A stretch of DNA of 64,000 nucleotides from Blastocatellia bacterium. Its GTDB lineage: Bacteria > Acidobacteriota > Blastocatellia > UBA7656. Below, piece by piece: positions 1,230 to 22,898 of this stretch (within the stretch, counting starts at the first letter, position 1; every line of letters starts with the position of its first letter). A program made the position numbers and the translations under genes. The notes beneath the pieces were generated by a model. That model saw only the letters and a list, made by a program, of their open reading frames with translations, searched no databases and was not told the DNA's origin. The DNA lies in assembly GCA_963765495.1 (NCBI GenBank), contig CAVXWP010000001.1, positions 1,248,715-1,312,714 of the forward strand. Direction: 5' to 3'.

Positions 1230-1243
1230 TCTGAAACCCTGAA

Positions 1244-4570: not shown

Positions 4571-4582
4571 ATCTTGTAAGCA

Positions 4583-5578: not shown

Positions 5579-5604
5579 GAAGCGCAAGAGTTAAGGAGGA
5601 AGGT

Positions 5605-5682
5605 TTGTACATTTTAGGAATCAATGCTTATCACGGCGATGCTTTGGCGGCGGCAGATATTTGGCTTTTGGGACGGCAATGA
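5605..5682 (+). pseudogene. Orphan 5' stub of a carbamoyltransferase gene (RBS plus about 17 homologous codons, then a stop)
   Basis: AAGGAGGA at 5592-5599 and TTG at 5605. Translation is [15 protein letters not shown], then TGA at 5680. Nucleotides 5620-5651 match 7331-7362 at 31 of 32 positions. Confidence 0.7.
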
Positions 5683-5831
5683 AGGATTTATTTCAGGCAT
5701 ACTGGTATCGCCTCCTTGTAGATATAAAAATTGATGTATTTCGCAGCGAGGAAACAGATACAGATAATCAATACGGCAAAGCCGTAACTGGTAAAAAAGC
5801 CGCAAGATGAACACGCAGCCTCTATAGAAAA

Positions 5832-5867
5832 GCCTGTGGAGCAAACCTTTCATTTACTCCACAGGCG
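5832..5867 (-). terminator. Stem-loop terminator downstream of minus-strand ORF 5913-6611
   Basis: 10-bp perfect stem, gcctgtggag (5832-5841) with ctccacaggc (5858-5867), and a 16-nt loop. On the minus strand it is followed by TTTTCTATA. Confidence 0.55.
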
Positions 5868-5912
5868 GTCACTGGATTAGGGATTTAACTTCCCTCGGGA
5901 CTGGTTCCCCCA

Positions 5913-6611
5913 TTACGGCGCTGTCGGTGGGGTATTCGAAGGCGTTGCAGGTGGCAGTTCGGGTGAAGACCTCCTGCCTTTGTGGCGCTCGACGTGACTC
6001 GCGCTCGTCCACGCCGCAAGCATCGCCGGATTGTTGCGGTATTTGTTACGAACTACCGCATTTAGCTGCTTTACATGTTTCAGCCCTTTGCCGATGACTA
6101 CATCGAGCGAGGCCGTAGCCGTTACCTGGCCTTCCCGGTCGTGGTTGCGCCCGGTAATCGCTTGCTCGAATGCCTGAATAGCCTCCTGAAGTTCGCTCAG
6201 GAAGTCTGTCGCCATTTCGCGGCGTGTAAACTCCGCAGCCAACGGCGTGGCGTCGGACAAAAAGGCTCGCGCCGAGTTCAGCAATGCCTGATCCGAAGGG
6301 TTGCGCGGAAGCCGGAACTTATTTTCAAGCCCCGGGTCTTCCAGCGCTATAGCTCGCGCAGTCAGGCTTATCGCCTCCATTTCATCCATCAACGTCTCGC
6401 GGGCCAGCGATTTCGATTCCGTCTTCTGACGGGCCGCGCCAGCCTTTGATGTTTGGGTCGAGGCCGTCGATTCGATCTCGGATACGGTTGCGCCGACATC
6501 TCCGATGAGCGTGCTGCCAAGCGTAGCCGCAGGAAAATCCGCGGCATGTGCTACGCCAAAATCGCGTACACGGCGCAGCATTTCGTATCGTCTCGATTCA
6601 TTTTGATTCAT
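5913..6611 (-). CDS. Hypothetical protein (232 aa), opposite strand inside the EPS locus
   Basis: Start moved to the ATG at 6611 (MNQNESRRYEMLRR...), preceded by AAAGGAGACACAAT. No recognisable motifs. The C-terminus is P/T-rich. Confidence 0.55.
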   Translation of the reverse strand: MNQNESRRYEMLRRVRDFGVAHAADFPAATLGSTLIGDVGATVSEIESTASTQTSKAGAARQKTESKSLARETLMDEMEAISLTARAIALEDPGLENKFRLPRNPSDQALLNSARAFLSDATPLAAEFTRREMATDFLSELQEAIQAFEQAITGRNHDREGQVTATASLDVVIGKGLKHVKQLNAVVRNKYRNNPAMLAAWTSASHVERHKGRRSSPELPPATPSNTPPTAP

Positions 6612-6738
6612 ATTGTGTCTCCTTTTGAAATACGACGCAGGCCGCCGAGGCCTACGGCTGAATATACTAAATATTGATTTTTCAATGGTTATCACACTCG
6701 ACGAGGGGGCACTCCCCCAGAAAACCGATTTTGACGAT

Positions 6739-6906
6739 TGTTTGAGCCGATTTGACGGCTGGTTTAATCGTTTTGCGCGCTTGCGAAGTTCTCTGAACGA
6801 ATGTTTGAACCGGTTTCCGCGATGTTGAAGTCATCTTTGCCGATGTTTGAGCCCGCTTTCACACTGTTGACGCCCTTTTCGACTCTGTTGAAATGAGATT
6901 TACGGT
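6739..6906. repeat. Array of eight exactly phased 21-bp degenerate repeats (TGTT(T)GA-N-TTT type)
   Basis: Units start at 6739, 6760, 6781, 6802, 6823, 6844, 6865 and 6886. Five begin TGTTTGA or TGTTGA. Confidence 0.75.
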
Positions 6907-7021
6907 TGCGCGAAACGATCTGTCCGAGCGGGTAGCCGGTTTAGGGGAATTACAGACGGTCGCGTCATCCCGTCATAATGGATAGACGGAATTAGTAAGG
7001 GAAATAACGCAAAAATGTTAT

Positions 7022-7183
7022 ATAAATCATCAGCAATTCTCGGTTTAGAAATTCTGTCTTAACAAGAAGTGAACCACGAAATACACGAAGCACACGAAAT
7101 AGAAGAATTATTCGTGTATTTAGTCTGTTTCGTGGTATATCCCGGTGCGATTTCCTCTAAACCGAGAATTGCTGATAAATCAT
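7022..7183. mobile_element. MITE-like element: 144 bp with 19-bp perfect terminal inverted repeats and a 9-bp direct (target-site) duplication
   Basis: IR-L cagcaattctcggtttaga (7031-7049) is the exact reverse complement of IR-R tctaaaccgagaattgctg (7156-7174). ATAAATCAT flanks both ends (7022-7030 and 7175-7183). There is an internal hairpin at 7073-7137 and no ORF inside. Confidence 0.7.
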
Positions 7184-7315
7184 ACAGCTTTATCCTCGTC
7201 GCTTGTCTCGATCAGGGCATCTTACGGCGGGATTCAGCCACGAATAAGCACAAATGGCCACGAACGATTTGTGCAGGCGCGTGGCCTGCTATTAGTTAAA
7301 AGGAAAGATACAGTT

Positions 7316-9106
7316 ATGATTATTCTTGGCATCAATGCTTATCACGGCGATGCTTCGGCGGCCATCATTTCAGACGGAGAGCTTATCGCCGCGATTGAAG
7401 AAGAACGCTTCAATCGCGTTAAGCATTGCGCCGGTTTCCCGGCGGCGTCTATACGCTATTGCCTGGAGGCGGCCGGTGTCAGCATCGAAGATGTCGAGCA
7501 CATAGGAATCTCGCGCGACCCGTCGGCGCACCTCCACAAAAAGATTCTGTTTGCGGCAACGCGCGCGGCTAAAAGCGTCTCGGGCTTTGATCGCGCGAGC
7601 AAAGAGGCGAGCGGTAAAAGCCCTCGCGGTATCTTTACGGCTGTGGCTGAAAGGCTCGCCAACGCCGGGCGGGTGCGCGACCTGAAAGAGGATCTGGCAA
7701 AGGCTCTGGGGGTAACAAAAAACAGCCTGCGGGCGGAATATCATAATGTCGAGCATCACGTAGCGCATCTGGCAAGCTCTTTCTTTGTTTCGCCTTTTAA
7801 CGAGGCGGCGCTCCTTTCAATAGACGGGTTCGGCGATTTCATCTCGACTATGTGGGGCATAGGCGAGGGAAATTCGATAGAAGTTCTCGGGCAGGTTGAA
7901 TATCCGCACTCGACGGGGATTTTGTACACGGCGACGACGCAGTTCCTGGGCTTTCCCTACTACGGAGATGAAGGCAAGGTAATGGGGCTGGCTCCTTACG
8001 GCAAGCCCCGTTTCATGGAGGAATTCCGCGACATAATCAGGACCGAAGAAGACGGGCACTTTCGCCTGAATTTGAACTACTTCCGCCATCACGCCGAGGG
8101 CGTAGACATGTCGTGGGACGAGGGGTCGCCGGTGATCGGGCGGATTTTCTCAGATGAATACGCGAGCCTCTTTGGCCCGCCGAGAGAAAAGAGCCAGCCG
8201 CTAACGGACCGCGAGCGCGATATAGCGGCAAGCCTTCAGCAGCGGCTCGAAGAGGTGGGATTTCATATCCTGAATCATTTGCATCAAAAGACGCGTCTCA
8301 CTGATCTCGGGCTTTCGGGCGGAGTCGCTTACAACTCGGTCCTGAACGGCAAGATACTGCTCAACACGCCGTTTCGCCGCGTCTTCATTCAACCGGCGGC
8401 GGGCGATAGCGGCACCGCGCTTGGCGTCTGCTATCAAATCTATAACGGCCTCTTGAACCGGGCGCGCAGTTTCGTTATGGAGGGCGCTTACACCGGGCCC
8501 GAGTTTTCCGATGAAGAGATACGCCGCGAATTGGAGTTGAGCGAGTTGCAGTTTGAGACGTATTCCGATAGCGAAGTCACAAAGCGCGCGGCCCGTGATA
8601 TTGCCTCGGGCGCTGTGATGGGGTGGTTTCAGGGGCGCGTGGAGTTTGGCCCTCGCGCGCTCGGCAACCGCTCGATCATCGTCGATCCGCGCCGCGCCGA
8701 TATGAAAGAGATACTCAACGAACGCATCAAGAAGCGCGAGCCGTTTCGCCCCTTCGCTCCATCAATTCTTGAAGAGCGGGTCGGAGATTATTTCGAGCAG
8801 ACGCACCCTGCTCCCACGATGCTTATGGTCTATCAGATCAGGCCCGAACGACGCGCAGAGATTCCAGCCGTCACCCACGTTGACGGGTCGGGGCGTTTGC
8901 AGACTGTAACCAGAGAGGTAAACCCGCGCTATTATCAGTTGATCTCGGATTTTTATGAGCTTACCGGCGTGCCCGTTGTGCTCAATACTTCTTTCAATGA
9001 AAACGAGCCGATAGTCTGCACTCCTCGTCACGCGATTGACTGTTTTTTGAAGACTCGAATGGATGTGCTCTATCTTGGCAATCACGCCGTTCGAAGGGCA
9101 AATTAA
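7316..9106 (+). CDS. Carbamoyltransferase, NodU/CmcH family
   Basis: Start set at the ATG at 7316 ([37 protein letters not shown], the family N-terminal signature). The 7145 start in the ORF track reads through the MITE. Confidence 0.85.
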
Positions 9107-9120
9107 AAGGAATCAGGTTT

Positions 9121-11208
<2,088 letters not shown>

Positions 11209-11217
11209 TAATCTCTC

Positions 11218-12489
11218 ATGCGTATTATTATTCTCAATCAATTCTTTTACCCTGATCATTCGGCCACGAGTCAGTTGATGACCGATCTGGCCGAAAACCT
11301 TGTCGAGCGTGGCGTAGATGTGACTGCGCTTGCCGGACGCGGGCGTTACAACGGCGGCGAACGACTCGCGCCGCGCGAGTCGCACAAGGGTATTCGCATC
11401 GAGCGGGCATGGGCTACGAGCTTTGGCAAGCAAAGCATGCTCGGCAGGCTTTCAGACTACCTGTCGTTTTATGTAGGGGCTTCGTGGAAGCTCATTCGCC
11501 TTCCGCGCCACGATATAGTTATGGCGCTTACGACCCCGCCCCTGATAGGACTTGTAGCTCTCATAATCGGTCGCCTTCGACGAATGCGAGTGGTTGCGCT
11601 CGTGCAGGATATCTATCCCGACATAGCCGTTGCGCTTGGGACGGTTCCGGCGCGAAACCCCGCGACAAAGCTTCTTGACGGGCTCAATCGGTTTATCCTG
11701 CGCGGGGCGGATCGAATAATCGTTCTGAGCGAATGCATGCGCGACCGCATAACGAAAAAGATCGAAGGCGCTCTTTCGCGCATAGATGTCATTCATAACT
11801 GGGCAGACGGGTCGAAGATCAGCCCGCTTGGAGAAGAAGAAAACGCCTTTGCCTCCGAGCATAACTCCGAGGGGAAGTTTGTCGTTCTATTCTCGGGGAA
11901 TTTCGGAAAGGTCAACGAGTTTCAGACCGTACTCGATGCCGCTCTCGTGTTGCGGGACCGCTCCGATATAGCTTTTCTCTTTATAGGCGAAGGTGCAAAA
12001 GCGAGCGAGATCAGACAGTTTTCCGACCGTCACAATCTCACAAATATCCGTCTGCTTCCTTATCAGCCCCGCGAGTCTTTGCGTCTCAGCTTAGCTGCGG
12101 GGCACGCCTCCCTTGTTACACTCGCGGATAATCTGGCCGGTCTCAGCGTGCCGAGCAAAACCTACGGCATTCTTGCGGCGGCCCGGCCCATACTCTTTGT
12201 CGGCGATAGCCGCAGCGAGATAGCGCGCCTCATTTTGGAAAACGACTGTGGTGCAGTAGTAGCCGCCCAACAGAGCGTCCGCCTCGCTCAAATCATATCG
12301 GATTGGGAATCTGATCGGACAAGACTCGAACGGATGGGCGCGGCGGCTCGTTCCTTGTTTGACCGCCGTTTCGACCGGCCCCACGCGGTTAGAGCTTATC
12401 TGGAATCCTTCGCAAAATGCATGGATGCCACCCCTCGTCGCCTGACGAGCGCTCTTGTAAAAAGAGCGGAGCATCGAGGAACTCTGTAA
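11218..12489 (+). CDS. Glycosyltransferase, GT4 family (WcaI-like)
   Basis: 423 aa. MRIIILNQFFYPDHSATSQL N-terminus and SVPSKTYGILAAARPILFVGD, typical of WcaI-type GT4 enzymes. Confidence 0.75.
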   Translation: MRIIILNQFFYPDHSATSQLMTDLAENLVERGVDVTALAGRGRYNGGERLAPRESHKGIRIERAWATSFGKQSMLGRLSDYLSFYVGASWKLIRLPRHDIVMALTTPPLIGLVALIIGRLRRMRVVALVQDIYPDIAVALGTVPARNPATKLLDGLNRFILRGADRIIVLSECMRDRITKKIEGALSRIDVIHNWADGSKISPLGEEENAFASEHNSEGKFVVLFSGNFGKVNEFQTVLDAALVLRDRSDIAFLFIGEGAKASEIRQFSDRHNLTNIRLLPYQPRESLRLSLAAGHASLVTLADNLAGLSVPSKTYGILAAARPILFVGDSRSEIARLILENDCGAVVAAQQSVRLAQIISDWESDRTRLERMGAAARSLFDRRFDRPHAVRAYLESFAKCMDATPRRLTSALVKRAEHRGTL

Positions 12490-12522
12490 AAGAGAATAGC
12501 CTTTCAAGAAAGGGTATAGAGT

Positions 12523-14109
12523 ATGTCATTTATATTCCTCACTGCCTTTGTTTGCTCGCTCCTGCTTTCGTTCGTCCTTACGCGCTATGTGCGTAACCTG
12601 GCGGTCGCTCGCGGGTGGGCGGCGACTCCTCCCATGCCGCATCACATTCATGCCAACCCCATACCCAGATTGGGAGGAGTGGGCATCTATCTCTCCGTCG
12701 CTTTGATTACGGGCCTGATGTTAGTTGGAGCGAAGCTGTTCAATTATGATATAGGCCCCATACAACATCGCGCGCTCTACATCCTTCTTGCGGGTACTAT
12801 AGTTTTTGTGCTTGGGTTTTACGATGATATTTATTCGGTTAGTCCTTACATAAAATTTGCGACACAGACTCTTGGCGCATTGGTGCTATATTTATCGGGG
12901 ATTCATGTGGGCGGTTTGCCGCCTCTTTTAGGCGGCTATGATCCGGGCTGGTGGTTGTCCCTGCCTCTAACAATTCTCTGGGTCTTATGGATTACAAATG
13001 CCTTCAATCTGATCGACGGGATTGACGGGCTCGCAGCCGGATCGGCGTTGTTTTCAACCCTGACAGTCTTTGTCATAGCATTGATTAGCGGCAACAACAT
13101 GACCTCGCTACTAGCCATCATTATGGGCGGCGCGATACTCGGTTTCCTTCGATTCAATTTCAACCCGGCGACTATTTTCTTAGGGGACTGCGGAAGCCTG
13201 TTTCTGGGATTTATGTTAAGCGCGCTCGCACTCGTCGGATCGCAGAAAGCCTCTACCGTGTTTGCCGTAGCCGTGCCGGTAGTCTCATTCGGACTGCCTG
13301 TGCTTGAAACGCTGATTTCCATCGCGCGTCGCTTCCTTAGCGGAAAGCCGCTGTTTTCGCCCGACCGCGATCACATACATCACAAGTTGCTTGATAGAGG
13401 TTTGTCTCAACGTCAGGTCGTGATAACCCTTTACGGGGTCTCAGCCATTTGCGGGTTATTGAGCCTTTTTCTTCTGGCTCCCGGCGGCGCTCCCGTGGCA
13501 GTAGTACTTTTCGTGCTGGGTGCGGGCATCTGGATAGGAGTCCAGCACCTCGGCTATCACGAGTTTTACGAACTCCGTAGAGTTGCCAATCGCACCATGA
13601 GCCAGAAGCGGATCATTGTAAACAACCTGTCTATCAGACGTGCAGTGGCAGAACTGCCGAAAGCTGAAAACCTCCTCGATCTTTGCTCAATACTTGAAAC
13701 TGCGTTTGAAAGCAATGATTTTGATAGCTTCCACCTCAGTCTCGCGCCCCGTGCCGCCGGGACACAGTTTATGACTGATGACCCTGAACTTACAGGTAGG
13801 CATAATTATATCTGGCACAAGCCAGCGGGAGGCAGAAGCATAGACACAGAATCCTTGCCCCACTGGACGCTTGTACTTCAATTGATGACAAAGGAAGGAT
13901 CGAACGGCTATTTCCTGCTCTACCGCGCCAGCAACGAACGCCCGCTACTGGTTGACGTAAATCTGCTTACATTAGAATTTCAAGTTGCCTTGTCTAAGGC
14001 GGTCGATCGCATAGTTGCTAAACCTAAGCGACAGCAGGTGATGAAGCAGTCGTCGCTGGTACAGGGGAAAGCCGTGGCCTTTGTGCCTGAAGTAATTAGC
14101 AAGTCATAA
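12523..14109 (+). CDS. Polyprenyl-phosphate sugar-1-phosphate transferase, MraY/WecA family, with a ~180-aa C-terminal extension
   Basis: 528 aa and multi-pass hydrophobic. NAFNLIDGIDGLAAG and FLGDCGSLFLGF motifs of glycosyltransferase family 4 (MraY/WecA). Residues ~345-528 are soluble with no motif I recognise. Confidence 0.8.
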   Translation: MSFIFLTAFVCSLLLSFVLTRYVRNLAVARGWAATPPMPHHIHANPIPRLGGVGIYLSVALITGLMLVGAKLFNYDIGPIQHRALYILLAGTIVFVLGFYDDIYSVSPYIKFATQTLGALVLYLSGIHVGGLPPLLGGYDPGWWLSLPLTILWVLWITNAFNLIDGIDGLAAGSALFSTLTVFVIALISGNNMTSLLAIIMGGAILGFLRFNFNPATIFLGDCGSLFLGFMLSALALVGSQKASTVFAVAVPVVSFGLPVLETLISIARRFLSGKPLFSPDRDHIHHKLLDRGLSQRQVVITLYGVSAICGLLSLFLLAPGGAPVAVVLFVLGAGIWIGVQHLGYHEFYELRRVANRTMSQKRIIVNNLSIRRAVAELPKAENLLDLCSILETAFESNDFDSFHLSLAPRAAGTQFMTDDPELTGRHNYIWHKPAGGRSIDTESLPHWTLVLQLMTKEGSNGYFLLYRASNERPLLVDVNLLTLEFQVALSKAVDRIVAKPKRQQVMKQSSLVQGKAVAFVPEVISKS

Positions 14110-14370
14110 GTTTTATCAAGAGAAAGCCCCCGAAGCGTAAGGTAATTAAAGATTGCCATCCACGCTGCCCGTAGGTGTATATAGCCCGCGCCTGCGAATC
14201 GCCTTCCACTCCTACCTCGACCATCGCCAGTTCTTCTCCTCCTTCATCTTCAAAGCGAAAACGATCCCCGCTTCCAACCCGGGCAGGGACAAGCCCGCGC
14301 CGTGCGAAGCACCGTCTGCGCCAATCGCCCCTACAGGCTACATTGAGTTGAAACCCGCTATAATTGAAGA

Positions 14371-16239
14371 TTACTCCCGCGCCTTGAGTCTCGCTTTGAG
14401 ATCGAAGTCCGGTGTCCTGATTGCGCCAATCAGATTCTGTGCTATGCACAAATCTCGAAACCGGCCATTCTGCTTTGCCATTAGGGAATTGCCGTTACCT
14501 GATTCGACCAAACGCCCTCCTTCAAGCACATAGACCATGTCCGCATTGAGAATAGTTGAAAGCCTGTGGGTTATTATCAGGATGGTTATGCGGCCATGAA
14601 GATTCTCTATCGCGCCTTGAATGCGTCTCTCATTTTCGGAATCAAGTGCGCTGGTCGCTTCATCCAGGATCAATAGCGAAGGCTTGCGTAGGATCGCTCT
14701 TGCTAAAGCCAGTCTTTGCCTTTCCCCGCCTGAAAGCCGCGCGCCGCGATCCCCCAGAATCGTTTCTATTCCCTCTGGCAGTGCCGAAACAAAATCTTCT
14801 GCTGCCGCAAGCCTTAAAGCCTTATTAATCTCTTCGTCGCTTGCCAGGGGGCAGGCCCAGACAAGATTAGCCCGCACAGTGTCGTGAAATAAGAAGGTGT
14901 CTTGCGTGACATAGCCTATCTGGTCCCGCCAGCTTGCAGCGCACCCGGCTCTGAGAGGCGTCCTGTCAATCAAGACGCAGCCTTCGGTAGGAGTCACCAG
15001 TCCAATGATAAGGTCTGCAATCGTACTCTTGCCCGCGCCCGAAGGCCCGACAATAGCGGTCGTCTGGCCTGCGGGGATATCCAAGCTGAGATCGCAGATT
15101 ATATCCTTCCCGTCTTCGTCATATCTGAATGATACATTTTCCAGTTGTAATGAATCAGTCAGAGAGACTCCCTGTGTCTCAGCTACCTTGTTTTCAGAAG
15201 CGGCTTCGCACCTTTCCTGCATCTTTTTTACCGTAGCAAACGAAGGCAGCAGGTTTATAAATTGCTGGTAGTTTTGTTGAATGTTTGAGAGTCTCGGCAT
15301 GATACGGGCAAATACGAACAGCAGCAAAAGCACTTCTGCGGTTGGGAGCGAGAGCACCTTGAAGGCGATGTAAACGATCAGGCTTAAGACAAGAACTGAC
15401 CCTATCTCGAACCATAATCTCAAATCGGCGTAATCGCGTGTTCCCTCAACGCTGACTTTCGTCACCCGTTCGATCAGCGAGGAAAACATTCTTCCAGTTC
15501 GCTCTTCGGCGTTATAGCTCTTTATCGTTTTTAATGCGCCCAGATGCTCTATTGTCGCGGCATACATCTCGTTGCTGATTCTTGAGTACTCCTCGCCGTT
15601 TACACGCGAAGCCCGAACCTTTCCCTTGAGCAGAAACAACAGCGCCGCCCCGCAGGCAAATACGAGTGCCGACATCGCTGTCGAAAGACGAACGGCCAGA
15701 GCGATATAGACCAGGGCTATCGTGGAATTAGATATCAGAAATAAGAGACTGTAGGTTGCCGAGTAAACGCGGTCGAGTTCTGATGTAAGAGCGTGAGTGA
15801 AATCCGAGGCCCGGCTTTTTGAAAGGAATATCCACCCGGCATTCATTATTGCCTCGTATATCTGCCGCCGCAGATGATCCACGAATTCGTAACCGAGCGC
15901 GAGACTCGAAATGGTTTGCCGACGGGACAACAGCGCGTGCGAGCAGGTTATCGCTATGTAGATAAAGAGAACCGTGATCAAAGTTGGGTGCAATCCGGTG
16001 GCCGCAAAAAAAGAAGATGCGATTTCGGCAAGGCGGCCTATGTTGCCTTGCTGCACATCCAGGCCCACGAGTCCCATCAGCGGCAACAGCAAAAGCAACC
16101 CTATGCCTTCGGTCAGGCCAACCAGGATCATCAGCCCCAGCACGATCAGCACCCTCCACCGAAGGGTATCGAGCAGGGTTGCCGTATAGGATCCAAGCAA
16201 ACCGCGCCCGTCCGCAGATTCAGCTTTCTTTTCCACCAT
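14371..16239 (-). CDS. ABC exporter (fused permease plus ATPase), probable lasso-peptide exporter (McjD-like)
   Basis: 622 aa. N-terminal half is transmembrane. Walker A GPSGAGKST, signature LSGGERQR, Walker B LLILDEATSALD. It is the last gene of the lasso cluster. Confidence 0.8.
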   Translation of the reverse strand: MVEKKAESADGRGLLGSYTATLLDTLRWRVLIVLGLMILVGLTEGIGLLLLLPLMGLVGLDVQQGNIGRLAEIASSFFAATGLHPTLITVLFIYIAITCSHALLSRRQTISSLALGYEFVDHLRRQIYEAIMNAGWIFLSKSRASDFTHALTSELDRVYSATYSLLFLISNSTIALVYIALAVRLSTAMSALVFACGAALLFLLKGKVRASRVNGEEYSRISNEMYAATIEHLGALKTIKSYNAEERTGRMFSSLIERVTKVSVEGTRDYADLRLWFEIGSVLVLSLIVYIAFKVLSLPTAEVLLLLFVFARIMPRLSNIQQNYQQFINLLPSFATVKKMQERCEAASENKVAETQGVSLTDSLQLENVSFRYDEDGKDIICDLSLDIPAGQTTAIVGPSGAGKSTIADLIIGLVTPTEGCVLIDRTPLRAGCAASWRDQIGYVTQDTFLFHDTVRANLVWACPLASDEEINKALRLAAAEDFVSALPEGIETILGDRGARLSGGERQRLALARAILRKPSLLILDEATSALDSENERRIQGAIENLHGRITILIITHRLSTILNADMVYVLEGGRLVESGNGNSLMAKQNGRFRDLCIAQNLIGAIRTPDFDLKARLKARE

Positions 16240-16255
16240 CTTTAACTCCGTTAGC

Positions 16256-17449
16256 TCAGTCCTCGCGCCTTATTATTCTCTGCATGTATTTTGTGGCCAG
16301 CCTGAGGGGGCGCAAGAAATAATAGAGTAAAGAGATGGAAGAAGGCAGGCTCAATAGCTCCCATTCGAGAGGAGTTGGGACCGCATTGTCGAGGATCAAT
16401 CTGGCCTTATCGCGCAACCGCTTCATCGTTTTTATATAGAAAAGGTCTTCTTCAAAAAACCATGCCCGGCCATCTACCTCTCGAAAGAGCTTTGCGCCTG
16501 CCTCTGCCGCGAGTGGTTTTACGATTGGGTCGGTTTGAGTTTCCCTCAAGACATCGTCGGGGACATCGGCCTCAAGCATCTCATAGGCGAGCAGGATGCC
16601 GAGAAAGAGCATGCGTTCGCTGCCTGCGGCTCTTGCCTGTTTGATCATCTGCGCCCAGTTCATTTGTTCGTATGTCCGGGTGAGTTCGGCCAGATCGCAT
16701 ATCCAGTTCAAATGCTTCCAGGCGTGTTTTGCCCCGTGCACGCATAAGAGTAGAAACAAATCTTCGGAAGAGAGAGTTGGAACCCTGGCTCCATCCATAG
16801 AGATATGCTCGATCCGCTTCCAGTAATCCTCGGGGTCGGGCGCGAATGTGTACCTCGTAGGCACGATTGACCAGTGAAGATCAACCGTCGTCATCCAGTT
16901 CTCGGTTCCGAAAGCATGCTCGCATCGGAACTCGATGAGGGAAGCCTCCTGCTCGCGGGTAAGATCGAATTGCGGCTCGAACCCGGTTGAGCTTAATAGC
17001 TCGCTGATCTTTGGAACATCTGACTTGCGCACCAGAATGTCAAGATCGAGGAATTGCCTGAGCGCGATGTCTCCGTAAACGCTCCGGGCAAGGATCGGCC
17101 CCTTGAAGGGGATCGCCTCGATGCCGTGAGATTCGACAAGCTTCAGAAGTTTTATCAATTCGTTGGTCAGAAAAAGATTGTATCCTGTATTAAAATGAAA
17201 TTGCTCTCGAAGCCGGAGCAGAACCTGTTCGGGAATCTGCTCAGGGCAAATGGCTTTGAGGTGATAATACAGAAGCGGCATCACTGCGTGCCTGAAAGCC
17301 ATCGCCGACAGGTAATCCCAATCTATTTCTTGCTTGAGTAAAGACCTGATTCGATCAGCTTTTTCAGTCGTCATGCGCGCCCGCGTGCAGCAGATAAGAA
17401 TTTCAACTTCGGGGCGCGCGCCGATTGTAGTGATGCTTATAGATTTCAT
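16256..17449 (-). CDS. Nucleotidyltransferase-family protein (lasso-cluster associated)
   Basis: 397 aa. The LDLDILV motif and overall pattern match the uncharacterised nucleotidyltransferase family that accompanies HPr-kinase-like genes in lasso clusters. Confidence 0.6.
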   Translation of the reverse strand: MKSISITTIGARPEVEILICCTRARMTTEKADRIRSLLKQEIDWDYLSAMAFRHAVMPLLYYHLKAICPEQIPEQVLLRLREQFHFNTGYNLFLTNELIKLLKLVESHGIEAIPFKGPILARSVYGDIALRQFLDLDILVRKSDVPKISELLSSTGFEPQFDLTREQEASLIEFRCEHAFGTENWMTTVDLHWSIVPTRYTFAPDPEDYWKRIEHISMDGARVPTLSSEDLFLLLCVHGAKHAWKHLNWICDLAELTRTYEQMNWAQMIKQARAAGSERMLFLGILLAYEMLEADVPDDVLRETQTDPIVKPLAAEAGAKLFREVDGRAWFFEEDLFYIKTMKRLRDKARLILDNAVPTPLEWELLSLPSSISLLYYFLRPLRLATKYMQRIIRRED

Positions 17450-17549
17450 GCGGCCCTTCTTTTACAATCCCGGCCATCAGTGAAGCCGAACAGCCGAGTT
17501 TGATTCAACGATTCGGCAGAGCATAGGGCCTGTTGATCGAGAGATACTT

Positions 17550-18698
17550 CTATCGGCTGTATTTTAGCGATAAATCGCCGATCCTGCTCAGGGCGTCGTG
17601 CGAAGTCTTGAAGCGAGCGGGAAATCTATCTGAAATCCGGCGCGCGATTTCGTCGAGTGAAGTTTGCCCATCCATCTCGGAGAGGATAAAGCGATCTATC
17701 TCGCCTTCTTCATCGAGCGCGGGCGCATAGTTTGAGGCGCGTTTGCGGAGCCGAGCCGGAGACAAAGGCGCGCCGAAAAAGGTTGATTGTTTGAAATCGG
17801 CTTTTACGGCCCGGGGATCATTCTGATCAAGGATGCGAGTGTTCCAGCGCCAGATGTAATCCTCTTCTACAAGATCGCCTTGCAGGATAAGAGAAACTCT
17901 GTCGTCAGCGGCAATAGCTACCGGTTCATACAAGGGAAATAAGGCATTGCCGTAGATGAGTTCAGGCTCGCCGGGGGCATTGGAAAAGCCCACCCCTTCT
18001 ATTAAAGAGGCGTCAAACCATGCGATTATTGCGTGCGCGGTTCCCGCCCGCTTCGCGGTCCAGACAAGTTCTGCGCTTACATCAGGGTTTTCTATGGTGT
18101 TGTAATCGAGCGTGGCCCAGCATTGCGGTTCAAGTAAGAGTTGTTCTGGCCTGACGCGACTCTTCCTCCAGGTATTGACCACGATTTTATGGGCCGCGCG
18201 CATATCGAGGCCGTAGTCATTGGCTCTCCAAGGGATTTTGTATTGATCGTATAAATCAGGCGCGTCAACAACAGAGGCCCACATCGTATCGCGCAGTGGA
18301 ATCAGCGTGCCGCCGGGCACGAGCAGCCTCTTGCGCGCATCAATTAACGAAGGAATGTGATTCTGAAAAAAAGAGAGTACGCCGCGCATATCAGAGACAA
18401 TAACATCAGCCTGTTCGGGCAAGGTTATTCGAGTTGATAAATCCTGGATAAACTCGATGCGTCCGTCGAGTTCGTTAGCAGCGGCGATCTCTTTAGCTAT
18501 TTGAATGGCATCATCCGGCTCAACCCCGTAGACGCGGCGAGCGCCGAATTGACAGGCGAGCATGGCGAAGATTCCAGTGCCTGTGCCTATGTCGAGCACC
18601 ACCGCGCCGGGTTTGATCGCCTGACGTAACGCCTGAACATAGCCGCTCATGCGCGCACTGTCGGTGATCATTTTTCCATAGGCGGATATAGTATACAT
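17550..18698 (-). CDS. Class-I SAM methyltransferase with PRMT-like architecture and a PqqD/RRE-like C-terminal tail
   Basis: 382 aa. [20 protein letters not shown] plus [28 protein letters not shown] parallels the PRMT1 N-terminus and motif I. The double-E loop position reads [14 protein letters not shown]. The tail [24 protein letters not shown] resembles PqqD. Confidence 0.6.
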   Translation of the reverse strand: [382 protein letters not shown]

Positions 18699-18699
18699 T

Positions 18700-19710
18700 T
18701 TAACCCTGTTCGGCCCCCGCGCAGATCAAAGCAGGTTGTGTCAAAGTCTGAAAATCATCAATCAATACATCGCATAGTTTTGACAGATACGCCGGGTTCG
18801 TATGAGGGATCGCTCGCCGCACCGGCACACCTTCAATAATACGATTCAGCAATTCGAACTCCTGAGCGCGCCTTATCTTATCCAAGAGATAATTTGTATA
18901 GGTGTTTGCGATTAAGCTGATCAGTGTTTCCCTGGAGGCTACAGCTTCGACGAAGGGAGCCCTCGGATCATCAATCCGGTTGGAGAGAATGTAAATCGCG
19001 GCAAGAGGGAGCGGGTGTCGCTGAAAATGGTAGCCTTCTTTTGTCAGATCCAGATACCGTTTATCCCAGGTGGGGGTCAGTCGCGGAAGGGCTTCGGACG
19101 AACCGTACAGGACATTGACCGATTCAGGCCATAGGCGAACGCGCGGATATGCTGGTTGAACCAGGAAGTGATCGCCCATATCGGAAAGCACAGTGACATC
19201 ATCCGATAAAACCGAATAACCCAGTTCTCCAAATGCCGCGGCAGTTGTTGATTTGCCCGCGCCCGCCGCGCCGAGCAAAACAATTGCCTGATCGCCTACA
19301 GCAATCGCGCTGGCGTGCATGCAGGTGACGCCGCGCAGGCGCAGCACGAATCCGAGCACCGGGCCGAGCAGGTAGGTAGCCGTATCTTCAAGCGTCAGAT
19401 CATCCGGCCATCTGGCCCATATCTCTGTTCCTGATTTATCAACGATAAATTCGGTCCCGTCGCCGTAAAGCAGGCGAAAATAACCTCCATCCACTTCCCA
19501 CACTCTTAAAGTCGGGCGGTCTTGCTCATCTCTACTCGTGGTGACATACCAAATCTGCTGAGAGACACAGGTCGGGTCGTCCATCCACGAAGGCATCAGT
19601 CCCAACCATACCCGCACATCCGTATGTGACACCCTCGCCTGAGCAATCGGCCCTGGTATAGGCAGGTTTGCACAGATTCTCAACCCATAGGCAAAATAAT
19701 GTAATGCCAT
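18700..19710 (-). CDS. HPr-kinase-related kinase (lasso-peptide kinase-like)
   Basis: 336 aa. MHASAIAVGDQAIVLLGAAGAGKSTTAAAF is the HprK C-terminal-domain P-loop pattern. Located directly downstream of the precursor gene. Confidence 0.7.
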   Translation of the reverse strand: MALHYFAYGLRICANLPIPGPIAQARVSHTDVRVWLGLMPSWMDDPTCVSQQIWYVTTSRDEQDRPTLRVWEVDGGYFRLLYGDGTEFIVDKSGTEIWARWPDDLTLEDTATYLLGPVLGFVLRLRGVTCMHASAIAVGDQAIVLLGAAGAGKSTTAAAFGELGYSVLSDDVTVLSDMGDHFLVQPAYPRVRLWPESVNVLYGSSEALPRLTPTWDKRYLDLTKEGYHFQRHPLPLAAIYILSNRIDDPRAPFVEAVASRETLISLIANTYTNYLLDKIRRAQEFELLNRIIEGVPVRRAIPHTNPAYLSKLCDVLIDDFQTLTQPALICAGAEQG

Positions 19711-19770
19711 AGTCCTTAAAGAGATGAATTATCTTCCGTACAGTAAAACGGTAATTCTACACGGATACAG

Positions 19771-19805
19771 GCACTAGATGGGGAGCGTCTTTTCCTATCT
19801 AGTGC
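19771..19805 (-). terminator. Stem-loop after the precursor gene (possible attenuator)
   Basis: 9-bp stem, gcactagat (19771-19779) with atctagtgc (19797-19805), and a 17-nt loop. No clear U-tract on the minus strand. Confidence 0.3.
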
Positions 19806-19845
19806 ACAATCAAAAACCGAGGGAGTTAATTTTACTTAATACTCG

Positions 19846-19995
19846 CTACGCTGTTTTAGTTTCCATGCCCAAACCGCCATCACCCGCTACCTTTGCCATG
19901 CCCACGTTCTGTGTTATCTCGCGGATGTTGCCATAGGCAACCATCTCGGGGCTTTTATATGCCTTTCCTGGTTGGTTCTCATCCTGTGACTTCAT
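19846..19995 (-). CDS. Lasso-peptide precursor (49 aa): MKSQDENQPGKAYKSPEMVAYGNIREITQNVGMAKVAGDGGLGMETKTA
   Basis: ATG at 19995 preceded by GAAGGAGAAATACT. The start lies 17 nt inside the 3' end of the cyclase gene. The leader fits Y-x2-P-x-(L/M)-x3-G-x5-T-x. Confidence 0.7.
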   Translation of the reverse strand: MKSQDENQPGKAYKSPEMVAYGNIREITQNVGMAKVAGDGGLGMETKTA

Positions 19996-21856
19996 AGTAT
20001 TTCTCCTTCTGTGCTTCGCATCTGGCCGACTCAATCGATTGTAGCCAGTTATTCAAACTGAGCGGGCGTAAATTAATCCATGCCTTGTAGGGGTCCTCTT
20101 CTCTAAATACATTGCCCATTGCTGCTCTGTCAACGTATTTATTCAATTCCGGCTCAGGAACGAACCAATCAACCCATTGTGCATCGGGTTGGCGTAGAGC
20201 TTCAACATAGGGGAAGCCGGCCAGCGGTGACTTCGGACGCCGCCGCACGGATTCAGGTAATACGTCACGCATTGAGGCGCGGAGTAATTCCTTTTTCACA
20301 CACCAGGGAACAGGCGGAAGCGATAGGAAATAATCTATCAACCGAAGATCAAGCAATGGATGCCGGTGCTCGATTGGAAAACTTGTTATGCCCGCATCGT
20401 GGCTCTCTAAAAGGCTCGACCAGAGGGCCGTTGATGTTAAGACTCTATAGGCATAAGGGCGGACAGGATGGTTCGACGGCGGATAGGAACTCAGTTGTTG
20501 CCATCGAGTAGCCAGATCTAATTGTTTCGCAAGAGCCTGATTTATCCAGACTGGATATGTCGGCTCTAGCTGCGGGGTTTGCCTCCCCATCAAACGACCG
20601 AGCTTGTCTCGAAAGCCGAGCGGTATAATTCTGCGCTGGGAAATGGCGTACCTGGCTGTGTTTATCACAAGTCGTCCGAATTGCCTGTCTTTGAGTAAAG
20701 ATCGAAGGTAGGGCTTTGGTGACTCGTTCAGAACCGTATCCCCGTCCCACCCCGTCAGCCCGACACGGCTATGAGCCGCCTGTAGTTTTGATTGATCGAC
20801 AGATATCGCGGGTTGCGGATCATTGACAGGTTCAGGGCGGCGAAATTCGGGGTTGTCCCAGTTTTCATATAGCTTGTAGTCGTCTCCTGCGATGTAATCT
20901 ATAAGGATGCCCAGTCTTTCTGCCGCCAGTCCTGAGTAGTATCGCTCTTCGTCGGGAATCACTCTGTCATAGACTACTGCATAGGCTCGCAGGTCATAGC
21001 AGGCGGACTGCTCCGAAAGCAGTTTAACGGCTGTTGCTGCTATAGCCGTTGAGTCCAGCCCGCCACTCATTGAAACGCTGACCCGGTCAGTCCGCAGCCG
21101 ATCATTTACCGCTGTTTGCAATAGCTCTCTAAAATGCTCGACATAATCATTTGCGCGGCGGTATCGAATGCGGCTGTCTGCGGGCAAAGCCCAATATCGC
21201 TTCAATCGTTGGGTTCCATCCGCCCACGTTAAACAGTGTGCGGGTGGCAGTCGCTGAATGTCGGCAAAGGTCGTCGTGGATGGCTCCTGGTTAGAGTCAA
21301 ACAGCAGAAAATCTGCGATGGCTAAATCATTCAATTCATCCGAAACCGCCGGGTGCATTCGCACGCAGTTCAACGTGTTGCTGAATATCAGATGACCGCG
21401 CACCTGAGCGTGATAAAAGGGCTTTACCCCGAAATGATCGCGTGCGCAAAACAGGCTCCGCTTTCGGCTGTCCCAGATGGCAAAGGCGAAATCGCCTATA
21501 AGATGCTCGACACACTCTTCGCCCCAGACCTCGTAGGCCCGCAAAATAAGCTCTACGTCGGTTACTCCCTCAAGCTTTATTGATCCTTTGGATTCCAGTT
21601 TCCCGATCAATTCCGAGCGGCCATCTACTCGCGCATCCGCCGTTATCCAGACTCCCCCGTCCAGACTGAATGGCTGATGCTCGCGCTCGGATTCAAACGT
21701 AGTCCGCAGCATCGTGTGGCCGAAGCCTATATTGCCGTCAATCCAGATTTCCTGAGCGTCGGGGCCGCGATAGGCCATAAACCCCGTCATCCGCCGCAAC
21801 AGTTGTCTGTCAACAGGTGCGCCGTCCAGGTTGATGATGCCAAGAATGCCGCTCAT
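19979..21856 (-). CDS. Lasso-peptide macrolactam synthetase (asparagine-synthetase-like, C protein)
   Basis: 625 aa. N-terminus is MSGILGI (Ser replaces the AsnB catalytic Cys2). PP-loop SMSGGLDS. ATGA overlap with the B2 gene. Confidence 0.85.
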   Translation of the reverse strand: MSGILGIINLDGAPVDRQLLRRMTGFMAYRGPDAQEIWIDGNIGFGHTMLRTTFESEREHQPFSLDGGVWITADARVDGRSELIGKLESKGSIKLEGVTDVELILRAYEVWGEECVEHLIGDFAFAIWDSRKRSLFCARDHFGVKPFYHAQVRGHLIFSNTLNCVRMHPAVSDELNDLAIADFLLFDSNQEPSTTTFADIQRLPPAHCLTWADGTQRLKRYWALPADSRIRYRRANDYVEHFRELLQTAVNDRLRTDRVSVSMSGGLDSTAIAATAVKLLSEQSACYDLRAYAVVYDRVIPDEERYYSGLAAERLGILIDYIAGDDYKLYENWDNPEFRRPEPVNDPQPAISVDQSKLQAAHSRVGLTGWDGDTVLNESPKPYLRSLLKDRQFGRLVINTARYAISQRRIIPLGFRDKLGRLMGRQTPQLEPTYPVWINQALAKQLDLATRWQQLSSYPPSNHPVRPYAYRVLTSTALWSSLLESHDAGITSFPIEHRHPLLDLRLIDYFLSLPPVPWCVKKELLRASMRDVLPESVRRRPKSPLAGFPYVEALRQPDAQWVDWFVPEPELNKYVDRAAMGNVFREEDPYKAWINLRPLSLNNWLQSIESARCEAQKEKYYEVTG

Positions 21857-22323
21857 TTGTCTCTTGCCTCTGCCGATGCTATGTCGCGGTCGAATGGAGA
21901 AAAACGCATTTCAACATCCTGGCTGTCGTTTAGAGCAAGGTCCATAAACTCAACCCAGGCATGAGCCTCCATCCGCCCCGCCTCTTTGCGTGCGCCGAAG
22001 CGCAGGCGGCTTTCAATCCGCCGCCGTCGCAGTAGCCACCATAAAATCAGGGATTCTTGCAAACAATTAGCGCGATACGGCCCCCACCGGGAAGCGATTC
22101 TCACTATCCTTGCCACCATCCGGGCTTTCTCGATCAATTTCTCGTTTTGTTCCTGCGGGATTTTTTTATCAACGGGCGATAAACGCAATAGAGCAGATTG
22201 CCAGCGATTGAATCCCACCACTCGCAACGCAGCGCCTGTGAGTGGAAACATAGGGAGAGCCTGCGCAAGCAATCGCCACTCTGGCAATGAAAGCTGCCGA
22301 GCCTTTTGCCACTTACCCGGCAT
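21853..22323 (-). CDS. Lasso-peptide leader protease B2 (transglutaminase-like Cys protease)
   Basis: 156 aa. RANCLQESL (Cys) and EAHAWVEF (His) match the B2 family pattern. Overlaps the B1 gene by 11 nt. Confidence 0.8.
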   Translation of the reverse strand: MPGKWQKARQLSLPEWRLLAQALPMFPLTGAALRVVGFNRWQSALLRLSPVDKKIPQEQNEKLIEKARMVARIVRIASRWGPYRANCLQESLILWWLLRRRRIESRLRFGARKEAGRMEAHAWVEFMDLALNDSQDVEMRFSPFDRDIASAEARDK

Positions 22324-22594
22324 TTATCTCCACTAATCCCTGTTCCGTCAATCTGCCGATCAGGTCCATTAAATCCTGTCGCAGCAGTTGCTCATCCACA
22401 TCATATTCATCAAGTAAAATCTCGTAAGCCGCCTGAATGGAATCGCTTGTTGTGAGAAGCGCCCACATGCGAGTCCCTATCTCGTCAAGGCCAAAGTAGC
22501 GCTCGCTTATCAAATTGAGAATGACCGATTCGCCGCCAACCGTGGAGACCAATACATCTGATGGCACTAATACACGTTTCTGAAATGCTTTCAT
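22313..22594 (-). CDS. PqqD-family RiPP recognition element (lasso B1)
   Basis: Start moved to the ATG at 22594 (MKAFQKRVLVPSD...), preceded by AGAGGAATC. ESVILNLISERYFGLDEIGTRMWALL...AYEILLDEYDVD...LMDLIGRLTEQGLV is the PqqD pattern. Confidence 0.8.
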   Translation of the reverse strand: MKAFQKRVLVPSDVLVSTVGGESVILNLISERYFGLDEIGTRMWALLTTSDSIQAAYEILLDEYDVDEQLLRQDLMDLIGRLTEQGLVEINAG

Positions 22595-22868: not shown

Positions 22869-22898
22869 GGGGAGAGAACCTCAAGACCGTTCTCTCCC
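22869..22898. terminator. Bidirectional stem-loop terminator
   Basis: Stem ggggagagaac (22869-22879) with gttctctccc (22889-22898). TTCGGATTTTTT follows on the plus strand and TTGTTTTTAC on the minus strand. It sits 50 nt past the stop of the minus-strand ORF at 22947. Confidence 0.6.

Follow-up and report, generated by a model that had tools for sequence, protein, structure and literature searches.

A kinase-methyltransferase lasso-peptide operon of a Blastocatellia bacterium that appears to represent an uncharacterized subclass of phosphorylated lasso peptides

Introduction

The paeninodin cluster of Paenibacillus dendritiformis C454 combines split B1/B2 genes, a cyclase, and an ABC exporter with an HprK-family kinase (PadeK; homologs ThcoK and SyanK). 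This kinase carries a His-Lys-Asp-Asp signature and phosphorylates the linear precursor near its C terminus; in paeninodin the acceptor is a strictly C-terminal Ser, and the cluster has neither a methyltransferase nor an N gene and comes from a host of another phylum than the bacterium studied here. The pseudomycoidin cluster of Bacillus pseudomycoides DSM 12442 pairs a kinase (PsmK) with an NTP_transf_5 enzyme (PsmN) that adds hexoses onto the phosphate and in which D134/D136 are essential; here, too, the acceptor is a C-terminal Ser, and there is no methyltransferase. In the Gram-negative Bradymonas sediminis FA350, the bsf cluster (BsfK and BsfN) has a YxxPxL leader motif at positions -17 to -12, Ile(-2), a B1 that stimulates the kinase, and phosphorylation at Ser3, again without a methyltransferase.

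Two further groups of systems are relevant. In Bacillota, linear polyphosphorylated peptides (LPPs; Popov et al. 2026) combine a kinase resembling HprK, an NTP transferase that is uncharacterized, a transporter similar to MsbA, and an RRE with a YxxP leader and a location inside polysaccharide loci, but they lack a cyclase, B2, and a methyltransferase and use a SipW-like signal peptidase instead. SAM-dependent methylation is known among lasso peptides from StspM/lassomycin (C-terminal carboxyl) and LihM/cellulonodin (Asp O-methylation leading to aspartimide); according to review descriptions, these are O-methyltransferases that are not PRMT-fold, and no kinase is coupled to any of them.

The window analyzed here (the whole stretch of 64,000 nucleotides) holds an operon that a sequence-only reading had described as a lasso-peptide cluster with a kinase, a nucleotidyltransferase, and a PRMT-fold methyltransferase. 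That reading placed the kinase-nucleotidyltransferase pairing with paeninodin/pseudomycoidin-type clusters, and the literature on the clusters confirms that it is of the paeninodin/pseudomycoidin/Bsf type.

Results and Discussion

Positions 14371-22594 of the minus strand contain eight intact, tightly packed ORFs in the order B1-B2-C-A-K-M-N-D, and family and profile matches bear out, gene by gene, the identities and order of the sequence-only reading.

22313..22594, minus: B1, PqqD-like RiPP recognition element, 93 aa (PF05402, E 5e-14; NF033536, E 3.4e-15)
21853..22323, minus: B2, transglutaminase-like Cys leader peptidase, 156 aa (NF033537, 84.5 bits against a cut-off of 33; PF13471, E 1e-21)
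19979..21856, minus: C, Asn-synthetase-like macrolactam (isopeptide) cyclase, 625 aa (NF033535, E 1.8e-122, 410 bits, under the 525-bit cut-off; Asn_synthase and GATase_7 above theirs)
19846..19995, minus: A, precursor, 49 aa, MKSQDENQPGKAYKSPEMVAYGNIREITQNVGMAKVAGDGGLGMETKTA (GGAG 8 nt upstream of the ATG; NF033528, E 3.7e-5, below cut-off)
18700..19710, minus: K, HprK/PEPCK-fold P-loop peptide kinase, 336 aa (AF2/Foldseek; weak profile matches to Hpr_kinase_C of Pfam, E 6e-4, and TIGR04352, E 2.5e-9, both below curated cut-offs)
17550..18698, minus: M, PRMT-fold SAM methyltransferase, 382 aa (PrmA and PRMT_C; PDB profile; Foldseek)
16256..17449, minus: N, NTP_transf_5 nucleotidyltransferase-fold enzyme, PsmN/BsfN-like, 397 aa (PF14907, E 1e-67)
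14371..16239, minus: D, MsbA/HepA-like ABC exporter with fused permease and ATPase, 622 aa (ABC_membrane and ABC_tran; best NCBIfam matches HepA_fam_ABC, E 6e-105, and MsbA, E 8e-86, both below cut-off)
18..14109, plus: EPS-type polysaccharide biosynthesis locus, convergent with the lasso operon (context; pathway membership is not implied)

The B1, B2, and C assignments are supported by the PqqD, NF033537, and NF033535 matches, respectively. B1 starts at an ATG at 22594 preceded by a Shine-Dalgarno-like AGAGGAA, with an alternative GTG start at 22612; the B2 translation carries the NCLQES Cys and the AHAWVE His, and the cyclase begins with MSGI (no Cys2) and contains SGGLDS. B1 and B2 overlap by 11 nt, as had been noted, B2 and C by 4 nt, and C and A by 17 nt, while the M start follows the kinase stop codon after a gap of 1 nt. 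Scans for promoters and terminators gave nothing better than shuffled sequence. The nearest homologs come from Blastocatellia/Pyrinomonadaceae MAGs, which makes the acidobacterial type of host suggested earlier plausible. Overall, 14371-22594 is a complete and probably functional class II lasso-peptide operon.

The central pair of enzymes is widely distributed. K has more than 5,400 homologs and M more than 2,400; 62 of 84 retrieved loci hold both, K being the immediate upstream neighbor of M in 45 and its immediate downstream neighbor in 3, and these K-M loci span Acidobacteriota, Cyanobacteria, Chloroflexota, Gemmatimonadota, Deinococcota, Proteobacteria, and Myxococcota. The distances of K and M co-vary (Mantel r, 0.605; reached by 0 of 999 permutations), and the order B1-B2-C-A-K-(oxygenase)-M-N-D is also found in loci L002 to L004; because gene order recurs in independent genomes, the arrangement is not due to chance. 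Some full-length loci (e.g., L045) have M but no N, but an M in a lasso context is hardly ever without its K. Stand-alone M homologs with the same motifs are found in Chloroflexia in housekeeping contexts with no kinase or lasso gene, so a phosphopeptide is no strict need of the M family. These homologs would suit an M that is a housekeeping or EPS methyltransferase merely lying within the operon, the product then being a plain paeninodin/pseudomycoidin-type phospho(glyco)lasso peptide; we consider this very improbable, given the location of M between K and N, with a gap of 1 nt to K, a placement kept in 45 of the 62 loci and at least seven phyla. No characterized lasso peptide with such a methyltransferase turned up in the literature open to searching, which took in a review of lasso modifications from June 2026 but not MIBiG, and the reviews consulted, reaching to mid-2026, list no kinase-coupled methyltransferase modification. 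The sequence-only reading had not recognized the gene combination as that of a characterized lasso peptide; it was right in that no characterized product was found in that literature, but the combination is not rare and belongs to a large multi-phylum family.

The precursor is a called gene in the source genome (P0121), and no other relatives of it, not even any with 5-residue words in common, were found among 5.8 billion proteins. Its leader contains Y13-x-x-P16-x-M18 ... Y21-G22 ... T28-Q29 and its C terminus reads ...ETKTA, with a K47-T48 motif; about 37 precursors of related loci have in common the leader YxxPxLxxYGxIxxxT-x and the C-terminal K-T motif. Counted from the canonical Thr(-2) cut, the ring acceptor Asp39 is core position 10, as in about half of the family, a point that the sequence-only reading had missed and that implies a 10-residue ring or else a shifted cut. 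In support of the cut site, entropy is lowest, in the D9 and the D10 group alike, at position +1 following Thr-x (A/T/S/N). The pseudomycoidin ring has 9 residues (Ala1-Asp9), and no native 10-residue lasso ring has been reported, an engineered 10-residue fusilassin ring being the only mention. The window tail is Gly-rich and, like the pseudomycoidin tail with its few bulky residues, offers little bulk, having none; an aromatic residue occurs in only 7 of 37 tails. Such a tail makes it likely that the modified Thr serves as the lock holding it threaded, a role that the authors of the pseudomycoidin study proposed for the modifications of that peptide.

The AF2 model of K (pLDDT 92) matched PEPCK (E 1e-7) and HprK/P C-domains (TMt 0.54-0.68) in Foldseek, and the homolog alignment shows H132, G152-K153-S154-T155, D171, and K217 to be invariant. 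Known lasso kinases target a C-terminal Ser or Ser3 of the linear precursor. The core was correctly described as lacking Ser, as translation confirms, but it does hold Thr46 and Thr48; unlike paeninodin, the precursor ends in Ala, and its family has the conserved K-T motif followed by 0 to 2 residues. Where Bsf has Ile(-2) and Ser3, the window precursor shows Thr(-2) and, in the place of Ser3, Ala or Gly, along with the C-terminal K-T motif. The type-2 relatives (GxSG...E8; e.g., Pseudomonas sp. N040 and Erythrobacter donghaensis) appear similar to Bsf at Ser3. Among 37 type-1 precursors, [KR][ST] falls within the last 6 residues in 32 and the K-T motif is present in 27. This conservation in related precursors points to Thr rather than Ser as the likely phospho-acceptor, and the Ser-less core thus likely still offers the kinase a target near its C terminus. 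Counting against Thr phosphorylation, the L064 core, on a truncated contig, has no Ser or Thr whatsoever.

M has the PRMT fold that had been proposed for it: residues 7-272 match PRMT8/2/1 (E ~1e-40 in a profile search against PDB; Foldseek TMt 0.84-0.86), and the whole fold (Rossmann domain plus beta-barrel) and SAM-binding motif I (VLDIGTGTG) are common to M and the eukaryotic type I enzymes PRMT1, PRMT8, and PRMT2. The arginine-binding residues are gone, though. The double-E loop has become S102-D103-x-R105-G106, with its second position variable, and THW has become (L)IYG; Asp takes the place of the loop's first Glu in 83 of 90 sequences, and position 105, adjoining Asp103, is Arg in 69 and His in 8 of the 90. 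M further carries about 70 aa of helical extension at its C terminus, and its substrate pocket is altered. Arg is absent from the cognate core and present in only 14 of 37 type-1 cores, and among 17 type-2 cores there are 4 that lack both Lys and Arg; a second M paralog, in which double-E and HW are kept, is restricted to clusters with Arg-bearing cores. The loss of the arginine-binding loops, together with these core compositions, makes it improbable that M methylates arginine (or lysine), and Arg105 beside Asp103 suggests an anionic substrate. The acceptor that we favor is the newly added phosphate, which would yield a methyl phosphodiester cap. We know of no precedent for a PRMT-fold enzyme that O-methylates a phosphate.

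Two other acceptors have to be weighed against the phosphate. M might instead be an N-methyltransferase acting on Lys47 of the K-T motif or on another Lys (e.g., Lys35), giving a phospho-Thr, methyl-Lys lasso peptide with independent modifications. PRMT-fold enzymes are N-methyltransferases, the best single Pfam match of M is PrmA, a Lys/N-terminal methyltransferase, and beyond the prevalence of K-T (27 of 37), a single type-1 core is without Lys. Yet Arg replaces the motif Lys in L044 and L049 (RRT), at least two of the four type-2 cores without Lys or Arg (L073 and L074) are paired with M genes, a conserved Arg/His by the catalytic Asp would be odd for cationic Lys, and Lys methylation would not account for the strict coupling to K; we therefore judge it unlikely. 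Somewhat more doubtful still is O-methylation of a carboxylate, either that of the C terminus, the site known from lassomycin (where the enzyme is unrelated), or that of Glu45. A free C terminus is the sole feature common to all M-associated precursor types, the pocket Arg105/His114 would fit carboxylate and phosphate equally well, there are known lasso peptides with C-terminal methyl esters, and the stand-alone M homologs do without a kinase. It would not explain, however, why lasso-cluster M has a near-constant K partner, usually directly before it, and the known lasso carboxyl methyltransferases appear in reviews as O-methyltransferases outside the PRMT fold.

With the phosphate as the preferred acceptor, we propose the following pathway, each step of which is drawn from homology and comparative sequence. 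B1 would bind the leader through YKSPEM...YG...T, and K would phosphorylate the K-T Thr of the linear precursor (Thr48 or, less likely, Thr46), possibly more than once. M, which would be translationally coupled to K, would methylate a non-basic acceptor, with the C-terminal carboxylate as second choice. N, in which K116-G117 and D135-x-D137 (the equivalent of the essential PsmN pair) are invariant among 35 homologs, would add a hexose or nucleotide to the phosphate, as PsmN does; M and N acting on one phosphate would be in mutual competition. Whereas the pseudomycoidin N gene lies between B2 and D, the order here is K-M-N-D. B2 would cut after Thr28-Gln29, and C would link the new N terminus to Asp39 in a 10-residue Asn1-Asp10 ring, or Gly1-Asp8 if the cut is shifted. 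The MsbA/HepA-like ABC protein, which has no peptidase domain among its Pfam/NCBIfam domain matches, would export the product.

The proximity to an EPS locus reported earlier is borne out by the polysaccharide genes at 18-14109 on the plus strand, which include four GT1 genes, two GDP-mannose dehydratase-like genes, an epimerase, a carbamoyltransferase, and a WecA-like GT4. Polysaccharide genes also adjoin the lasso operon in its closest relatives (L001 to L005) and in L063, L066, and L080; Bacilli RiPP clusters with a kinase and an NTP transferase as well as a protein similar to MsbA are embedded in capsule loci, the top ABC matches of D are polysaccharide/lipid exporters, and unmodified pseudomycoidin is unthreaded. 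These observations would fit a cell envelope- or EPS-associated phosphoglycopeptide, branched-cyclic or only loosely threaded, tied in function to the polysaccharide locus, and exported by the MsbA/HepA-like transporter, in place of a free, threaded antibiotic-type lasso. We give this a low probability: the canonical lasso enzymes B1, B2, and C are all present, and an EPS-type neighbor of any sort occurs in only 14 of 84 loci, so the linkage may largely be local synteny.

Our combined results lead us to favor, with moderate confidence, a reading in which a complete B1-B2-C-A-K-M-N-D lasso operon, acting through the pathway proposed above, would belong to a large, multi-phylum, and apparently uncharacterized subclass of phosphorylated lasso peptides of the paeninodin/pseudomycoidin/Bsf type. 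The product of the window is an uncharacterized variant among phosphorylated lasso peptides, with a chemistry that we infer, and the same enzyme combination is widespread among soil and water bacteria.

Gene content of the lasso peptide operon

Eight closely spaced ORFs at 14371-22612 on the minus strand make up a lasso peptide operon whose gene content is confirmed and which belongs to a large, uncharacterized family of clusters carrying a kinase (K) together with a methyltransferase (M). Profile searches gave the same eight gene identities as the sequence-only reading, which had staked itself on HMM support for B1, B2, and C; this support was obtained.

Genes of the lasso peptide operon, with the evidence for each assignment
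B1, minus strand: PqqD-like RRE; PF05402, 52.7 bits (cut-off 23.4)
B2, minus strand: transglutaminase-like Cys leader peptidase; NF033537, 84.5 bits (cut-off 33); Cys and His motifs present
C, minus strand: Asn-synthetase-like cyclase without the glutaminase Cys; MSGI N-terminus, SGGLDS motif
A, minus strand: 49-aa precursor; ATG with GGAG 8 nt upstream
K, minus strand: P-loop kinase with weak similarity to HPr kinase; Pfam and TIGRFAM scores below cut-off
M, 17550-18698, minus strand: methyltransferase; matches to PrmA and the PRMT oligomerisation subdomain
N, minus strand: NTP_transf_5 protein; PF14907, E 1e-67
D, minus strand: fused ABC exporter; nearest families HepA/MsbA

The cyclase scored above the cut-offs for Asn_synthase and GATase_7; its match to NF033535 had an E value of 1.8e-122, but at 410 bits it fell below the 525-bit cut-off. 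The precursor is a gene in the source genome's own annotation. The 11-nt overlap claimed earlier for B1 and B2 is present, the overlap between B2 and C is 4 nt and that between C and the precursor 17 nt, and 1 nt separates the kinase stop codon from the methyltransferase start codon; because the genes are packed so tightly, we regard them as a single operon. The G+C content is even across the region. For M, the source annotation begins at Met10 (373 aa); since all homologues align from Met1 (MY[ST]I...), we prefer the 382-aa ORF.

Upstream from B1 is a short hydrophobic ORF (74-100 aa; 22947-23249, minus strand), with hairpins at 22817-22900 between it and the lasso operon, including a terminator-like one at 22835-22817. 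It had no counterpart in related loci and is probably outside the cluster. An attenuator hairpin in the 135-nt spacer between precursor and kinase was rejected, as folding was no better than that of shuffled sequence (z -1.5). A promoter and terminator scan of 14000-23400 gave fewer matches than shuffled sequence and was therefore uninformative. The sole RNA gene detected in the window was tRNA-Phe (GAA), at 60550-60625.

The operon adjoins a polysaccharide locus on the plus strand (18 to 14109), a position that resembles that of Bacilli RiPP clusters with kinase, NTP-transferase, and MsbA-like genes, which sit inside capsule loci. That Bacillota and Acidobacteriota share such a location hints at a cell envelope role rather than a classical antibiotic one. 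Because an EPS-type neighbor was found in only 14 of 84 related loci, a functional link to EPS is not claimed.

Distribution of the kinase-methyltransferase module

M has more than 2,400 homologues; the best 120 are full length and about 60% identical, and the named hosts among them are Blastocatellia/Pyrinomonadaceae MAGs. Three close relatives match the window cluster in gene order, B1-B2-C-A-K-(2OG oxygenase)-M-N-ABC, also beside polysaccharide genes. In two Blastocatellia relatives, a 2OG-Fe(II) oxygenase gene lies between kinase and methyltransferase (L002 9449-9970, L003 8639-9250; L numbers denote retrieved loci with M homologues, in local coordinates), which suggests further hydroxylation of their products. 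A fourth close relative (L001 8942-19402; GCA_023250515.1) likewise has polysaccharide genes nearby, but its K-M-N genes adjoin two neighboring lasso gene sets and the order differs. Its two precursors are ...PAMSK and ...DAAMS, and this locus also encodes a 577-aa fusion of NTP_transf_5 and a different class I methyltransferase.

A scan with one genome per species gave 80 loci; our counts cover 84 loci, with family HMMs built from the first matches. K and M occurred together in 62 of the 84, the remainder being mostly short contigs, and K was directly upstream from M in 45 loci and directly downstream in 3. Distances between kinases were correlated with those between methyltransferases (Mantel r 0.605, reached by 0 of 999 permutations). 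In lasso contexts, M was almost never found without K; N was common, yet missing from some complete loci (e.g., L045). Hosts include Acidobacteriota, Cyanobacteria (Aerosakkonema, Chamaesiphon), Chloroflexota, Longimicrobium, Trueperaceae, Myxococcota, Erythrobacter donghaensis DSM 16220 (L059), and Pseudomonas sp. N040 (L035). The last two are cultured, as are the module carriers Aerosakkonema sp. BLCC-F183 (L008), Argonema antarcticum, and Planktothrix sp. FACHB-1355.

Kinase, NTP-transferase, and phospho-acceptor

The structure of the kinase was modeled because its sequence scores fell below curated cut-offs. The AF2 model, built from 27 homologues (pLDDT 92), has the expected P-loop fold of HprK/P and PEPCK; Foldseek matched it to PEP carboxykinases (E 1e-7) and to the HprK/P C-terminal domain (TM 0.54-0.68). 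No variation was seen at His132, Gly152-Lys153-Ser154-Thr155, Asp171, or Lys217, and the window sequence also has D170. The reported signature of lasso kinases is His-Lys-Asp-Asp, and the window kinase thus shares with the paeninodin type an HprK-family enzyme with the His, the P-loop Lys, and the Asp-Asp pair. More than 5,400 homologues were found, some from cultured cyanobacteria. In N, Lys116-Gly117 and Asp135-x-Asp137 are invariant; the equivalent positions in the pseudomycoidin enzyme PsmN are essential for activity (the D134A/D136A mutant is inactive), so that the cluster also has the NTP_transf_5 enzyme with catalytic DxD motif that is typical of pseudomycoidin. Sequence searches of the PDB with K and N gave no significant match.

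About 54 precursors were recovered beside lasso genes; a homologue search with the window precursor found no protein other than itself. One leader, Y-x-x-P-x-L-x-x-Y-G-x-I-x-x-(I/L/M)-T-x, is common to all the recovered precursors. The window leader has Y13-K-S-P16-E-M18 and, sixteen residues later, T28, a spacing identical in the ~54 related precursors; with the Tyr taken as -17, the Thr falls at the canonical -2. Acidobacteriaceae precursors with Ile/Val at -2 (Duan et al. 2023) were set aside as a different family with ...AYQADE C-termini.

The cores fall into two types. Of the 37 type 1 sequences (window included), 32 have [KR][ST] at the C-terminus with 0-2 residues after it, and in 27 of the 37 the pair is K-T. 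The paeninodin type has a C-terminal Ser as acceptor; the window precursor ends in ...E-T-K-T-A, and the conserved K-T motif (Lys47-Thr48) stands in its place. The earlier statement that the core lacks Ser is correct, but the kinase still has a likely target in this motif: from the conservation of the C-terminus, the phospho-acceptor is likely to be Thr48 (or Thr46).

Type 2 (17 sequences) begins with G-x-S-G and has Glu/Asp at position 8, resembling BsfA of the Bsf system, which is phosphorylated on Ser3. Such precursors (GxSG...E8, variable C-terminus; L010, L012, L017, L020, L035, and L059) are accompanied by the same M and a more distant kinase, and their hosts include two of the cultured strains, Pseudomonas sp. 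N040 and E. donghaensis DSM 16220.

Ring size and tail

Textbook lasso peptides have rings of 7-9 residues and bulky residues as plugs. With the canonical cut after Thr-Gln, the presumed ring Asp of the window precursor (Asp39), its first acidic core residue, is at core position 10 (NVGMAKVAGD). In the 37 type-1 cores, acidic residues first appear at position 9 (18 cores), 10 (16 cores), or 11 (1 core). An alternative is a shifted cut that gives a G1-D8 ring: an Asp/Glu at position 7, 8, or 9 of the window core is obtained only if the cut moves by 1-3 residues (V1-D9, G1-D8, M1-D7). Among the first six positions, entropy is lowest at +1, where the A/T/S/N composition is alike in the D9 and D10 groups, and an indel within the ring distinguishes pairs such as AVGQSGKKD (L029) and AVGGVVGKND (L040). 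Because of this +1 conservation and these in-ring indels, the alignments favor a single cut site, with a ring that has 9 residues in some peptides and 10 in others. No native ring of 10 residues was found in the searchable literature; engineered fusilassin tolerates rings of 7-10 residues (2026 review). The calculated neutral monoisotopic masses for an N1-D10 lasso are 1887.918 unmodified, 1967.885 with phosphate, 1981.900 with phosphate and methyl, and 2143.953 with a hexose in addition; for a G1-D8 lasso, the first three are 1674.807, 1754.773, and 1768.789.

The window tail is GGLGMETKTA, and an aromatic residue occurs in only 7 of 37 type-1 tails. When its kinase and N are left out, pseudomycoidin is unthreaded, and the authors of that work proposed the phospho-hexose as a lock. 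By analogy, this logic, in which a modification would lock the tail, fits the window peptide.

Fold and substrate of the methyltransferase

M is a genuine PRMT homologue. Over residues 7-272, its profile (29 sequences) matched PRMT8, PRMT2, and PRMT1 with E ~1e-40, and its AF2 model (pLDDT 81) superimposes on PRMT1/8 with TM 0.84-0.86, keeping the Rossmann and beta-barrel fold of type I enzymes. In the PRMT double-E loop, two invariant Glu hold the guanidinium. This loop is not kept in M: the first Glu is replaced by Asp103 (D in 83 of 90 sequences), and the second position is unconserved (G/E/Q/A/R). The THW loop is likewise not kept, with L247-I248-Y249-G250 instead. Beside Asp103 is Arg105 (R in 69 of 90, H in 8). 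A PqqD-like RRE in the M tail was considered and found no support; hhalign of the C-terminal 70 aa against 56 B1 sequences gave a probability of 5%, and the AF2 model has helices only there.

These substitutions suggest that M is not an arginine methyltransferase by the usual mechanism. The window core contains no Arg, the sole Arg of the precursor being leader R25, whose position is not conserved; Arg is present in only 14 of 37 type-1 cores, and 4 type-2 cores lack both Lys and Arg. Clusters carrying M include both precursor types and both kinase subfamilies, and what they have in common is a kinase and the free C-terminus of the peptide. Because of these shared features and the cationic pocket residue in M, the acceptor is most likely an anionic group. 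Phosphate is favored over the C-terminal carboxylate, as we infer from the coupling of K and M; against phosphate stand Chloroflexia homologues that have the same motifs and no kinase nearby. We consider it possible, though unlikely, that M was re-tooled from guanidinium to anion binding and O-methylates a phospho-Thr installed by K, giving a methyl phosphodiester, on a 10-residue Asn1-Asp10 ring. If so, the methyl phosphodiester cap would be new both as a modification of peptides and as a reaction of the PRMT fold, and the ring would exceed any native ring reported.

The Chloroflexia stand-alone homologues (L026 9448-11164, L032 9392-11164) are full length and have the same SDLRG...H...YG motifs; lasso and kinase genes are absent from the 10 kb around them. 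These homologues always follow a ~150-aa SHOCT-domain protein with an N-terminal poly-Arg tract. The idea that they might be "true" double-E PRMTs failed, as the same SDLRG motif was found in them.

A second PRMT-like paralogue, which retains the double-E loop (SE...E) and the HW of THW and thereby serves as an internal control, occurs in five loci (L007 4124-5416, L011 11131-12423, L071 3882-5993, L064 7038-8324, and L062 1-1119); the L011 protein matched PRMT4.2 at E 2e-28. Where a precursor was found (L007, L011, L071, and L064; not L062), the core contains Arg in 4 of 4, in the context G-R-G or T-R-G in L007 and L011. K-M clusters with this second gene are candidates for truly arginine-methylated lasso peptides.

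Relation to known systems and significance

The window cluster appears to work like the paeninodin, pseudomycoidin, and Bsf systems, but it lacks the Ser acceptor that is a defining feature of those systems, and none of them has an enzyme of the M family. Lasso modifications in reviews of 2021, 2022, and June 2026 comprise C-terminal methyl ester, aspartimide, phosphorylation, phosphoglycosylation, acetylation, citrullination, hydroxylation, epimerisation, prenylation, halogenation, cross-links, dehydroalanine, and a second isopeptide bond; no PRMT-fold enzyme is among them. No characterized product of a K-M lasso cluster was found in the searchable literature, MIBiG being outside the scope of the search.

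With about half of its precursors having Asp at position 10 and most tails lacking aromatics, the K-M family puts both textbook rules, on ring size and on plugs, to the test. Lasso peptides are prized both as antibiotics and as stable scaffolds, and the range of products that can be made grows with every new tailoring enzyme. Here, a PRMT-fold methyltransferase family without the arginine-binding residues is partnered with a kinase in thousands of lasso clusters from many phyla; solving one example would annotate all such clusters and would also reveal the function of a bacterial PRMT-like enzyme.
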